Under the pieces are notes generated by a model. That model worked only from the letters and a program-made list of their open reading frames with translations. It had not been told where the DNA came from and did not search any database. Shown here piece after piece: positions 1,304 to 36,624 of a DNA stretch of 64,000 nucleotides (within the stretch, counting starts at the first letter, position 1; each line of letters starts with the position of its first letter). The position numbers and the translations under genes were made by a program. This DNA comes from Eledone cirrhosa (lineage: Eukaryota), in the NCBI GenBank assembly GCA_964016885.1, contig OZ024750.1, positions 930,001 to 994,000 of the forward strand, read 5' to 3'.

Positions 1304-1869
1304 ATTATAATGAAATAACAGGAGGCTGGATTTGTGTAAATCCTTGAAAGGTTTATTACACTATGATCATTTCAATGACCGGGTTCCGTATGAATCCGGT
1401 GATATCATCAGGTATTCGAAATATAATACGTGAATGTAATAGATAAAATCCATGGGGCTGAAAATCGAGGACCCGAGGGCAACCTCTATCTTGCACCCTC
1501 TATCTTAGCCGGTCGCCCTCGAGCTAAGATAGAGGGTGCAAGATAGCGGCCGCCCTCGGGTCCTCGATTTTCAGCCCCATGGATTTTATCTATTACTTTC
1601 ACGTATTATATTTCGAATACCTGATGATATCATCGGATTCATACGGAACCCGGTCATTGAAATGATCATAGTATAATAAACCTTTCAAGGATTTACACAA
1701 ATCCAGCCTCCTGTCATTTCATTATAATATTTAACTCTGTAATAGCACCACCAACTACAAAAACAAAGACGGTTGAACTGCCTTACATTGAGTACTCTCT
1801 ATATTATTACATTACGATTGACCATACGGAATAGACCAGCTCTATACAGTGGTGAACCTCAAACCTGAA
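1304..1869 (+). mobile_element. Hammerhead-bearing fold-back element in (TA)n (Penelope-like pLTR fragment with inverted 5' copy)
   Basis: Inverted arms 1304-1509 and 1523-1728 with few mismatches, 13-nt spacer, unpaired 3' tail 1729-1869, (TA)n on both sides, hammerhead motif in each arm. Confidence 0.8.
1617..1674 (+). ncRNA. Minimal type-I hammerhead ribozyme motif (mirror copy 1358-1415 on - strand)
   Basis: ATAC-CTGATGA-[imperfect stem II]-GAAA-TGATCA(palindrome)-TA-GTAT, then AATAAA at 1675. The base of stem II is imperfect. Confidence 0.7.
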
Positions 1870-1950
1870 TATATATATATATATATATATATATATATAT
1901 ATATAGCCCTAAGACTATATTCATTAGTTTATCATTGAACTGTCTCTTAC

Positions 1951-2031
1951 CTCATCTGTGTCTCTTTCGCCAGTTTCTACGCGGAATCGACCGACGCTCT
2001 GATTCGATCCTTCAGCATCACATGACGTAAG
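1951..2031 (-). CDS. GARNL3: Internal coding exon of a GARNL3-like (RapGAP domain-like 3) gene: LTSCDAEGSNQSVGRFRVETGERDTDE
   Basis: Minus strand: pyrimidine tract ctctctcttttttctctacAG acceptor, 81-nt open exon (phase 0/0), GAG|GTAAGA donor. The peptide resembles the vertebrate GARNL3 segment LISSDADGAIQRAGRFRVENGSSDE (recalled, not searched) and continues in frame from the exon at 24682-24751. Confidence 0.85.
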
Positions 2032-32792: not shown

Positions 32793-35700
32793 ATATATAT
32801 ATATATATATATATATATATATATATATAATCTAATGTATTATTGGATTTATGCTCCTAAAAATATTTTAATTTAGTAGAGCTGACTTAAGGACCTAATG
32901 ATGAGTTATTTTAGAATTCCTGTTGATCAGGGTATTTGTCAGACAATACGATCGATATTTTCTGTATTGATCTAAATTATTATTTTGTATATATATATAT
33001 ATATATATATATATATATATATATATATATATATATATATATATATATATATATATGTATGTGTGTGTGGTATATTTATATATATATATAAATATATAAA
33101 TAAGCTTTCCTGATGATTTTTTCCGAATGAAACAGTTCTACTTCCGTAGAAGGCATTTATATATTAAACTTGAAGTTTACACTCTAATAATGTATTGAGT
33201 ACCTTACTAATTGTGGTTACCCCCGATTAACCCGGGATTCTCTCTCTCTCTCTCTCACACACGCACACATATATATCGGTCAACTCACTGTCCTTAATAC
33301 CACCAACTAATATTACAGTTGATGTGAAGTCATAATGGTTATAAAAGATGAAGGGCGGTGAGAGGGTATCCCTATCTTTTGACATGTATTGTGTTCTGCC
33401 AGACATTTAGAAGTAGAACGAGTAAAATGAATCAGTGGTAAAGATCAACTGGAAATTGATCAAAAGTTTGATGGGTTGCGATACTTAGATCGAATTCTCT
33501 CACATGAAAATGAATGAATAAAAATAGATATTGGCTTTGACTTAATAATATTTGTTGGAAATCTTGGTAAGTACTCCAGAACAAGAGGCTAGTAACTGGC
33601 GAGTTGAAACTTCGATGCTGTTGCAATCCCCGATATAAACCACTTCATTTTATTTCCATCATTAATGCTTTTACAAAAGTTGTGGTCGTCATCATTTTTT
33701 TTGTTTTTATTTCTCTTTCCCTACCAGAGAGGATCTTAATGTCTTGTAAAGAGGAAATCAATAATTATCGGAAAATTTGATATTACCTTTTTATATTTCT
33801 ACATTTAGGGAAAAGGAATTTCGGATGTTCACATCTAGCTCAAGGATACTAAAAGAGAAGTTGGAGTGCAATGGTTTCCATTGAAAATCGAAACAGCTTT
33901 ACGTAATGATATTGCGAGAGATTTTTATCCATTTTCTCTGCGCCATTCACCAGGAGAACTTAATATTAAATGACCTTTAATGCAAAATTGATTTCGTTTG
34001 ACTAAGCTTTCGATTTTCAGGGGAAGAAAATGGAATGTTGAGGCCGTTACGTTCCTTCCAGTGATATTAATGGCATAAATAATGGGAAATGACTTGAAAT
34101 CAGGAATAAACCTACCCCTTACATTATGTGTTTAATCACAGAAACAGGTAAACTATATAGTTTCTTTTTGTTTAGGCACAAAAGTATAATCTTTATTTTT
34201 GGGGTTGGAGTGGGGAATGGAAACTTGTAATGTTCAAACCTTTTCAAAGAAGTGTAACTAAAGTAAAATTATGGAACTGCTGAAACTGAGAATAGGTGTC
34301 AGTTTCGAACTCCTAGGAGTTTATCTCTTGATTTACGGTAGTACTTGATATTGCAACGTATTGACGTTTATGATACGAGAGTAGACTGAAAAGTTCATAG
34401 TCTGACTATGAAGGAGTGATGATAGAGCTGTGAAATCTTGTATGTATTAATTTGAAATAATCTTATTAATAATTGCATTGTCTCTTTCAAGTGACTATGT
34501 TGAAAAATAAACCTCATTTGGTCATGAGAGTATCTGAACTTTTCAGGAGACCCAGGTATGTAAAATAAACTACATCTCCTAACGGAGTCAAGAGACATTT
34601 CAAGCTGTAGAGTAAATTCATAAATGCAGATAATTAGAATATTGAATTGCCACCAGAAAAATATCTTCTTTCCTTTTTCGAAGCTCCTCGTTCACAATCT
34701 GTCACCGAAAGAGATTTTCCTTTTCATAAACTGTCAACCAAAGACACTGAAAACATTGTTATTTCCTCTCCCTTCTTTCCACTCACATTTTCGTTAAACC
34801 ACAATTAACCAAACATTTCTAATCCACAGCCATCTTGCTTCCACATTCTTCTTCCCAGTTCCCTCTAGCTTTGCCATTAAAAATCCTAGTAATAATATTG
34901 CTTTAAAAATTCATTAAAACCCCGTTGATTATAATTAAATAAATTGGTGAAATATAAAAAAAAATAATTCACAATTTATTTTTAAAAATTCAGTTAATTA
35001 AAAAAAAAAGTTTAATTGATTAAAATTGATAAACTTTATCTCATAATACAACCTTCTCAAAGTCTGATATAACAGCCAATATCTTCAAACTGATATCAAC
35101 CTAAGATATCGTAGGTAAGAGCTATAGCATTATACAGTAAATTCTCACTGTGATTTGTAGATGAAATATATTGTGCTACACCACAATCAAATATAAAGGA
35201 CCGTGTCTCATTTTTGATTTTTACGGTTTTCAAGACCAATTATTCGATATTATGATCCAATATGTCAAAGAAACTAGTTCGTTGTTAATTCACCACCATA
35301 AGTAGTTCATCAATTCTGGCGATTGTCCTTAAATGGATAGGATGTATGGTCCCGTAAGTCGTCGTAGAGATGCCGTATTAATATACAGCGTTTCTAAGGC
35401 ATTTTAAAACTTGGCGGAGCCCATCCCTTTCCAGGTTCGAATACAGCAGATTTCTTCAAGAGAAGGATAGAGAGTGAACGAATAGAAGTGAGGAAGAGAC
35501 CCAGAGCAAGAATCGGCCCAGTACTAGACAAGTACCTTTTTCTCGACCTAGAATGGATGAAAGGCAAAGTTAACCCCAGCAGGGTTTGAATTCAGGGAGC
35601 AGAGAGCCAAAACAAATACCGCAAAGCATTCTCTCCAACGTTCTAACGATTCTACCAATTCACTGCCAATTGTCCTTATATAGAAATGTCTAAATTCCAA

Positions 35701-36180
35701 GTTGTTCGTCAGCCAACGAAATATGACGGTTTTAAACAGATTAAATATCTGTTGGAACTTTAAATGTCTATGGAGGTTATTTACAGATAACTTACAAAGA
35801 AACCTTAACGACAATGCAGAAATATTTCGCCAGCTTTAATAAATTAATTATTATATATGCGTTTAAAAGTTGTAAACAAGCAATCTTTAGATATCTTGTA
35901 ATTATCGTATAAAACTATTCTCTCTTCTTCCATCTACTCTCTCTCTCTCTGTATATATATATATATATATATATATATATATATATATATATATATATAT
36001 GTGTGTGTGTGTGTGTGTGTGTGTGTATATAAATATATATGTATATATATATTTATATATATATATATATATTTGTATATATATATATATACATATATGT
36101 GTATATATATATATACATATATGTGTATATATATACATATACATATATGTGTATATATACATATATATATATATATATAT

Positions 36181-36624
36181 GGAAAGTTATATTTAAATTG
36201 TTGGGTTACAACTAGTAAATATTTATAACTGATATAAAAGCACTCGACAAATATTTGGAGTATATTTACAATATTAAATAAATGGAAACTATATTTATAA
36301 AACCATATTTATTTCATTATATATATTTCAGGGATATCATATTAACAATATGCTATGCCTTCCTCAGACAAAATACAATATAAACAGTTTTATAGATAAA
36401 TAGATTCGACATACCGTAACAACAACGACTTGTATTTGAAAATCAACCTTTTCAAATACAAGTCGTTGTTGTTACGGTATGTCGAATCTATTTATCTATA
36501 AAACTGTTTATATTGTATTTTGTCTGAGGAAGGCATAGCATATTGTTAATATGATATCCCTGAAATATATATAATGAAATAAATATGGTTTTATAAATAT
36601 AGTTTCCATTTATTTAATATTGTA
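36181..36624 (-). mobile_element. Hammerhead-bearing fold-back element with apparently perfect 176-bp arms
   Basis: Arms 36267-36442 and 36449-36624, 6-nt spacer TCAACC, tail 36181-36266, (TA)n flanks. Same family as 10649-10890. Confidence 0.85.
36516..36581 (+). ncRNA. Minimal type-I hammerhead ribozyme (mirror copy 36310-36375 on - strand)
   Basis: TATTTTGT-CTGAGGA-AGG..CATATT-GTT-AATATG..CCT-GAAA-TATATA-TA-ATGAAATA, with AATAAA overlapping the end. 8-bp stem I with G:U pairs. Confidence 0.8.

Follow-up and report, generated by a model that had tools for sequence, protein, structure and literature searches.

Are short hammerhead-ribozyme repeats embedded in (TA)n microsatellites complete mobile elements, or the ends of larger ones? 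This question is raised by a 64,000-nucleotide (nt) stretch of the Eledone cirrhosa genome (GCA_964016885.1, contig OZ024750.1, positions 930,001 to 994,000; hereafter the window), which has 34% GC and is rich in microsatellites. A first-pass annotation, made from the sequence alone, had described seven loci between positions 1304 and 36624 as a system of small self-cleaving units without open reading frames (ORFs). We analyzed these loci together with the surrounding 3.0-Gb genome. The seven loci are very probably 5'-truncated insertions of six families of Penelope-like elements (PLEs), likely formed by target-primed reverse transcription from two sites, and their PLE origin as such is almost certain. 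The ribozyme units are small because larger elements have been truncated at variable 5' positions.

Hammerhead motifs at the seven loci

The window was scanned with a descriptor of the minimal type I hammerhead (stem I of at least 4 bp, CUGANGA or UUGANAA, a folding stem II, GAAA, a near-palindromic helix III, and UH). All seven loci were found where the first-pass annotation had placed them. Ten of the 11 matches (1411-, 1621+, 10835-, 17362+, 29040+, 31951+, 32210-, 32533-, 36367-, and 36524+) fall at these loci beside (TA)n, the single stray match being 27815+, compared to a mean of 0.22 and a maximum of 2 in 100 local shuffles. No match was found in the reversed window or in the part of the window beyond 36.6 kb. 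The second arm of locus 17139 also has the core (17247-), with a stem I below the descriptor cut-off. The cut sites proposed previously at 1670, 17412, 32000, and 36573 are those given by the scan. The division into six families, here called A to F, is likewise upheld, loci 10649 and 36181 being 89% alike (both family B). In contrast, the core at 28817 had been taken for a mutated one, but all 21 descriptor matches of this family (D) read UUGAAAA, even though the descriptor also allowed CUGANGA; it represents the U3-A8 variant, not decay. AATAAA, described as following most motifs immediately, occurs at the cut or within 10 nt of it in five of six families, the exception being F (the chance is 0.022 per 20 nt; four of the five families are relatives and thus not independent).

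A scan of all fetched loci, comprising 1 Mb of flanks, yielded 269 distinct matches vs. 4 in the reversed sequence. When palindromy of helix III was not demanded, it was a perfect palindrome in 8 of 14 motif types and a near-palindrome in 12. In an alignment of 12 Hydra-type motifs, 90% of the cells are paired and 14 of 20 pairs have changed on both sides, a level reached in none of 500 shuffles (slid controls, 28-50%); this set was partly picked by a descriptor that demands pairing and its rows are relatives, which weakens the argument. Two further results count against the motifs: the best 150 of the 297 Rfam matches in the window include no hammerhead, the top ones being microRNA models placed on TA palindromes below their cut-offs, and the isolated motifs, except that of E, fold no better than shuffled ones (z -2.2 for E, +0.8 to -1.5 for the others). 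Hence the case for hammerheads rests on the core and on covariation rather than on folding energy. At the sequence level, minimal type I hammerheads beside (TA)n are confirmed for all seven loci.

Coding elements behind five of the six families

No reverse transcriptase (RT) or GIY-YIG ORF had been noted near the loci. In agreement with this, a tblastn search of the window with PLE proteins detected no PLE coding sequence; it matched only part of a short interspersed repeat with which one of the query frames began. The arms were searched against the genome, and the best 40 candidates per family (8 for B) were scored. The copy candidates, which are lower bounds rather than copy numbers (AT-rich words were skipped for B), amount to 1058 for A, 8 for B, 2278 for C, 825 for D, 91 for E, and 535 for F. 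As the first-pass annotation had anticipated for PLE-derived pieces of pseudo-long terminal repeats (pLTRs), the arms are multi-copy and some copies are joined to RT and GIY-YIG ORFs; such copies were found for B, C, D, E, and F, and not for A.

In particular, a truncated copy in inverted orientation is accompanied in one family B locus (L136) by a pLTR that includes the ribozyme and the tail, an ORF of 737 codons, and a 1.3-kb 3' untranslated region (UTR) that returns to the pLTR, giving a unit of about 3.8 kb. Its protein has the motifs RWR, DKT, CxCx5C, CxxC, and CxH, and no CCHH. According to Craig et al. 2021 (PMC8557442), the Hydra clade is marked by RWK-like, DKT, CxCx5C, and CxxC/CxH motifs without CCHH; all five marks are present in B and the C-terminal three in C and E, for which the N-termini were not recovered. 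In the family C locus L140, a 45-aa stub of a C-terminus of the Hydra type lies upstream of the 3' region (profile E-value 5.5e-11); all 20 loci picked by the ORF end continue into the C 3' region, 17 of them with coding sequence directly upstream, and the frame carries YRDD. For family E, two independent loci (L137 and L139) have RT and endonuclease sequence 1.1 kb upstream, with RT motifs seen. Similarly, a broken RT and GIY-YIG ORF with KEADKG and Cx4CxxC lies about 1.3 kb upstream in two independent family D loci (L143 and L094), and in 12 of 20 family F loci the distance from the end of the ORF to the arm is about 125 nt. The 3' UTRs of B, C, D, and E measure 1.1-1.8 kb. Pfam recognizes GIY-YIG in F above its cut-off, and RVT_1 below it in F (E-value 1.5e-4) and D (0.026); GIY-YIG in D, B, C, and E was recognized by motif. 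By these motifs, B, C, and E appear to be Hydra-type PLEs and D and F Neptune/Nematis-type; D may be Neptune and F Nematis. Naiad was considered and rejected (endonuclease C-terminal; hammerheads canonical).

The modeled N-terminal half of the B protein (pLDDT, the predicted local distance difference test score, 81) is most similar to telomerase RT (TERT; best Foldseek match, E-value 1.7e-4). The Hydra profile had no matches in a PDB sequence search, and an ESM Atlas search led to eukaryotic clusters without names, in one of which 20% of the members carry RVT_1, which is a lead only; one named relative of the B protein comes from an octopod. Together, the families show the features of endonuclease-bearing (EN+) PLEs, namely a telomerase-like RT in a single ORF, a C-terminal GIY-YIG domain, and a minimal hammerhead in the pLTR (by sequence and covariation). 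They also show the PLE insertion structure, with pLTR, partial tandem, inverted 5'-truncated copy, and one-sided tail (L136; B, C, D, and F; the E tail in L105 and L110). Miniature inverted-repeat transposable elements and microRNA hairpins were rejected as candidates, as the arms end unequally and run on into ORFs.

A search with the Hydra-type N-terminus gave 12,947 first-look candidates. Among them is a very abundant young family, H (L320-L339, e.g., G000:C2:85918333), with an open ORF of 706-709 aa in 19 of 20 fetched loci; near its 3' end there is a hammerhead-like stretch with CAGAAGA in place of CUGANGA. The E2 ribozyme, tried as belonging to family H, is absent from it and was rejected. 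PLE ends of many families are nested in the same TA tracts (e.g., L047, L140, and L320), and 1 Mb of flanking sequence contained at least 14 different types of hammerhead.

These data bear on the proposal that the mobile elements are the small ORF-less, self-cleaving, retrozyme-like units themselves, each a complete short family. Such units would account for the short length of most top copies and for the absence of ORFs in family A, and about half of 19 family E copies (L097-L115) begin at one place, 71 nt before the core. However, copies of A, B, C, D, and F begin at many different 5' positions, five of the six families end ORF-bearing PLEs and the sixth ends a 2.3-kb unit, short tandem arrays were seen in none of these loci, and the common E start falls on an ATAT able to pair with the TA target. 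The proposal is very improbable as a whole and largely refuted for B, C, D, and F. The E start, directly after the TA tract, may be a hot spot of 5' joining or may define a short sub-family.

Two fixed 3' ends and the structure of fold-backs

Each family has two constant 3' ends beyond the ribozyme, a short end and a tail end, located about +52 to +55 and +138 to +198 from the cut in Hydra-type families, +78 and +142 in D, and +157 and +214 in F. TA follows the tail end in 104 of 130 occurrences (4/5 in B and 17/19 in C; 14/20 for the end of E) at a background of 9%, and in 15 of the remaining cases the sequence continues straight into another unit. A, B, C, and E have in common an ACTC..GAGT stem-loop (+57 to +64) that is absent from D and F (chance 5/5110, for a motif defined by eye on the very sequences tested).

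The two ends are distributed regularly between the arms of inverted copies. Among 40 long family A loci chosen by their interior, all 21 fold-backs with both outer ends intact combine one short end with one tail end, and either arm may be the long one; the remaining 19 loci are single-armed or broken. The same combination is seen in 31 of 33 fold-backs of B, C, D, and F, where the C and F queries contained the tail, so that short/short pairs could not show in these two families. Alternatively, the stumps could be PLE ends that became palindromes only afterwards, as DNA, either when breaks in fragile (TA)n tracts were repaired by folding back or when an antisense template primed itself (Arkhipova et al. 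2013). Symmetric cases (the window E pair and L053) agree with such an origin, and self-priming from junction palindromes is argued for in PMC3846280. However, a copied arm would repeat its end, whereas the A fold-backs carry two different, fixed, and family-specific ends, with the longer arm on either side; we therefore give this explanation little probability.

In most cases, the two arms share a few bases at their junction. None of 30 tail-selected A loci starts at the cut (unit position u874), the nearest starts being 862, 878, and 880; among the long loci, one inverted arm starts at u875. Since no copy starts exactly at the ribozyme cut, the cut linear RNA is an unlikely template. In 6 of 26 inverted long A insertions the direct arm starts at u1071-1074, within 4 nt of the tail end (four distinct junction types, two occurring twice; P about 6e-5 against an even spread, a post hoc value), and 3 of 40 loci start at u924-928, the short end. 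A/T-rich microhomology could contribute to the starts at these priming sites.

Family A, a kilobase-size unit without ORFs

The A arm is the end of a 2261-bp monomer (L007, 776-3036). An older subfamily has 300 bp extra (about 2560 bp), and both subfamilies have spread. All 30 loci fetched with an interior piece map to one unit, and in most of the 40 longer loci the sequence continues past the tail until the following ribozyme is reached, 2261 or about 2560 bp on. Copies mostly span 1-1.5 units; those that begin upstream of u820 and reach beyond the following u880 (L205, L212, L217, L229, L231, and L243) contain two complete hammerheads in direct tandem. The longest stop-free frame is 93-190 aa. 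No PLE coding remnant was detected by tblastn in four copies or by the Hydra profile in six frames of 22 copies (best E-value 0.42), the 45-aa C stub serving as a positive control. Nevertheless, family A has the insertion structure of PLEs (two ends, fold-backs, and TA ends) and Hydra-like signals, an 8-nt helix III and a first end 55 nt past the cut. It is likely moved by a PLE enzyme.

A sister family, A' (L265-L289, 1134 candidates), is older, and its tail is 61-65% like that of A; its full unit was not recovered. The tails are homologous and stem I covaries between them (CAC/GTG vs. TAC/GTA). In end alignments with A, z is 10.9 for A' and 2.0 for B, and the other families give none. No ORF link was seen in 25 A' loci.

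Family A could also be a very long 3' UTR, or a relic of internal deletion, of a coding PLE whose ORF-bearing copies were missed. The long 3' UTRs of B, C, D, and E, the scoring of only the best 40 candidates, and the existence of A' speak for such an origin. Against it, the tail runs into the same non-coding monomer and back to the ribozyme in most of the 40 loci, the Hydra profile that detects the C stub is blank on A, and two subfamilies differing by the 300-bp block have both spread. We regard this origin as improbable, and family A as highly likely to be a dedicated non-autonomous element.

Proposed two-site priming model

The regular pairing of ends suggests a two-site priming model, which we consider likely. 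The GIY-YIG endonuclease would nick both strands of a TA tract, and two RT molecules would prime, one at each fixed internal RNA site. Both would stop early, and their 5' ends would be joined, often by microhomology, producing a head-to-head palindrome with the tail on one arm, or a single stump where only one arm survives. Family A would borrow a Hydra-type protein for this process. For the Poseidon PLE in vitro (PMC11167929), both target strands are nicked and extended, RT starts at two internal sites that set the tail, and the ribozyme needs protein and is dispensable for insertion.

Both priming sites lie downstream of the cut and of AAUAAA, and thus the long copies cannot be templated by the linear monomer that the cut releases, nor by an RNA polyadenylated in the usual way. 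The template would be an RNA that reads through the ribozyme, either an uncut tandem multimer or a circle closed by ligation, and both of these fit. The stops at priming positions look as though the enzyme, having gone once around, had run into the start made by itself or by its partner; they favor a circle or roadblocks of protein without deciding between them. A circular template, already proposed for PLE hammerheads (PMC4209133), is possible but rather unlikely. Equally tentative is the idea that family A is a giant retrozyme, a gene-less RNA circle of 2.3-2.6 kb that a pair of hammerheads in tandem would cut out and on which a PLE enzyme of the Hydra type would prime twice to copy it. It is suggested by the copies being permuted, longer than one unit, and never starting at the cut, and by the long arm stopping at the second priming site. 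The ribozyme might then act as a switch between a polyadenylated message without the priming sites and a circle keeping them, since it cuts 0-10 nt before AAUAAA and 50-200 nt before both sites; this doubtful extension belongs to the same idea.

Several observations weigh against the two-site interpretation or the assignments on which it builds. Two fold-backs are of the tail/tail type (L053=L054 and L089), and in L053 the starts are identical and there are two tails. The tail-to-tail pair of family E in the window is unexplained by the model and may reflect two insertions or an inversion at the DNA level. The search for a coding partner of family A via A' and the Hydra N-terminus found none. 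The L136 ORF has an internal stop in the RT catalytic motif, so this copy is dead; the modeled C-terminal half of the B protein has as its best match the GIY-YIG nuclease I-TevI, a weak one below significance (E-value 0.35), and the B, E, and H proteins were unrecognized in the Pfam search. The clade calls are made on motifs, and the precedent in vitro is by analogy, coming from a Poseidon and not a Hydra element.

Arms in the window

Coordinates of the arms are listed in Table 1. The first-pass annotation placed the loci correctly and missed the tails (A to 1868, C to 17556, and D to 29211). Six loci are indeed inverted repeats; they do not share one design. Families A, B (locus 36181), C, and F are arranged head-to-head with a longer tail on one arm, the two E arms stand tail-to-tail around (TA)25 and have identical 5' starts, D has a left arm of only 48 nt, and in D and F the whole ribozyme is present in one arm only. 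By prediction, RNA transcribed through a fold-back would collapse into a single hairpin of 200 bp in which the ribozyme is hidden, so that the fold-backs are likely dead ends rather than active dimers, and the seven loci likely dead, inert stumps.

Table 1. Positions of PLE arms in the window
Family	Feature	Positions	Strand	Core, cut, and comments
A	Inverted arm, 5'-truncated, short 3' end	1304..1509	-	Core 1411, cut 1362
A	Direct arm with 140-nt tail (1729-1868)	1523..1868	+	Core 1621, cut 1670; AATAAA at +5; ACTC..GAGT stem-loop at +64; end of 2261-bp ORF-less monomer
B	Single 5'-truncated copy with tail end	10648..10923	-	Core 10835, cut 10786; (TA)n on both sides
C	Inverted arm, short end	17139..17297	-	Core 17247
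C	Direct arm with tail	17312..17556	+	Core 17362, cut 17412; apparent 3' end of Hydra-type PLE
D	48-nt inverted arm, broken inside ribozyme	28817..28863	-	(TA)n between it and direct arm
D	Direct arm with tail	29002..29211	+	U3-A8 core 29040, cut 29069; apparent 3' end of Neptune/Nematis-type PLE
E	Short-ended arm	31908..32056	+	Core 31951, cut 32000; apparent 3' end of Hydra-type PLE
E	Second short-ended arm	32109..32253	-	Core 32210, cut 32165; tail-to-tail around (TA)25
F	Arm with tail	32285..32607	-	Core 32533, cut 32499; 3' UTR of RT and GIY-YIG PLE
F	Inverted short-ended arm, starts inside ribozyme	32608..32792	+	
B	Arm with tail	36181..36440	-	Core 36367, cut 36318; same tail in L136 runs into ATG of 737-codon Hydra-type ORF
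B	Inverted short-ended arm	36451..36630	+	Core 36524, cut 36573

Several other repeats were noted in the window. Another TA-flanked family, probably another PLE end, occurs at 10387-10564 and 20873-21043, once as a fold-back with tail and once single, cut short before any ribozyme; it is also present in L106 and L199. At 33091-33300 there is a repeat by a TA tract that matches 21 fetched loci and has a CTGATGA..GAAA core at 33110 failing the descriptor. A 60-nt hairpin repeat at 1130-1250 lies between TA and TC tracts and has relatives beside TA tracts in several loci, without a hammerhead. A non-LTR (long terminal repeat) retrotransposon 3' fragment with a zf-RVT domain is located at 40192-41019 (-), with longer relatives in L032. 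Finally, unrelated minisatellite arrays occupy 15095-15676, 16182-16762, 42976-43909, and 58763-61661 (offsets of 96, ~29/54, 30, and ~40 bp, respectively).

Comparison with known elements

Insertion into (TA)n is shared by B, C, and E with the Hydra clade as described in PMC8557442. In that description, Hydra elements are generally shorter than 3 kb, which is not a strict criterion (B here is about 3.8 kb long), the tails have 30-40 nt, whereas here they have 56-143 nt with 3' UTRs exceeding 1 kb, and there are few families, whereas the type is abundant here, as judged from the candidates found with one N-terminus. Families D and F resemble Neptune/Nematis in the DKG-type motif, the Cx4CxxC linker, the cysteine pair inside GIY-YIG, the pLTR hammerhead, and the microsatellite targets; they differ in that D has a U3-A8 core and F has an imperfect helix III (AGAACU) without a favourable self-duplex.

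The minimal PLE hammerheads of Cervera and de la Pena 2014 (PMC4209133) have the same short stem I, long stem II, and small palindromic helix III, occur mostly solo or as opposite-strand pairs 100-700 bp apart, and include the U3-A8 variant. They differ in nothing essential; here helix III has 6-8 nt and AATAAA stands right at the cut. The Poseidon element PAc of the green anole (Frangieh et al. 2024, PMC11167929) is alike in its two internal RT starts that set the tail, its AT-rich targets, and its upstream ribozyme. Its start sites lie inside the ORF and it reportedly primes without target homology, whereas the sites found here are non-coding and each end in a short A/T run that merges with TA.

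Animal non-LTR retrozymes, published as non-autonomous PLE derivatives (bioRxiv 10.64898/2026.07.22.740005), resemble family A, according to this preprint and PMC7229834: they are non-coding, have a type I hammerhead and direct repeats of more than one unit, are related to PLEs, and are presumably moved in trans. The retrozyme monomer has about 300 bp in PMC7229834 and 51-972 bp in the preprint (period up to 1000), compared to 2.26-2.56 kb in family A, which thus falls outside this size range. Retrozymes also form long tandem arrays with a canonical ribozyme, whereas family A has 1-1.5 units, inverted arms, tails, and a minimal ribozyme.

Implications for PLE copying

PMC4209133, PMC8557442, and PMC3846280 already describe hammerheads in pLTRs, pairs on opposite strands, truncated copies in inverted orientation, tails on one side, and the targeting of (TA)n, and PLEs are described as numerous and recently active in an octopus genome (PMC13282606, the main text of which, as available, mentions neither hammerheads nor Hydra). 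A literature search on octopus or cephalopod Penelope hammerheads, the Hydra clade, twin priming with tails, and the polyadenylation-signal mechanism found no paper on this case, most subscription papers lying outside its reach. Within that reach, these families, the kilobase-size ORF-less PLE passenger, the rule that a fold-back combines a short end with a tail end, and the stem-loop common to the tails of A, B, C, and E are new. Family A may already be catalogued in a repeat database, and the families may also figure among the elements listed in the supplements of PMC8557442 and PMC13282606.

The formation of tandem and inverted PLE copies and the role of the hammerhead are still open (PMC8557442 and PMC11167929). 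As this genome has thousands of young copies with fixed ends, belonging to several clades, the question of PLE copying becomes one of counting, and the combination of one short with one tail end, the stops at priming positions, and the shared stem-loop provide direct predictions for an in vitro assay of the Hydra clade. Family A indicates that gene-less PLE passengers can reach kilobases, and such elements would escape retrozyme screens limited to 1 kb. Finally, the analysis suggests that many long (TA)n tracts in this genome are nests of PLE ends.

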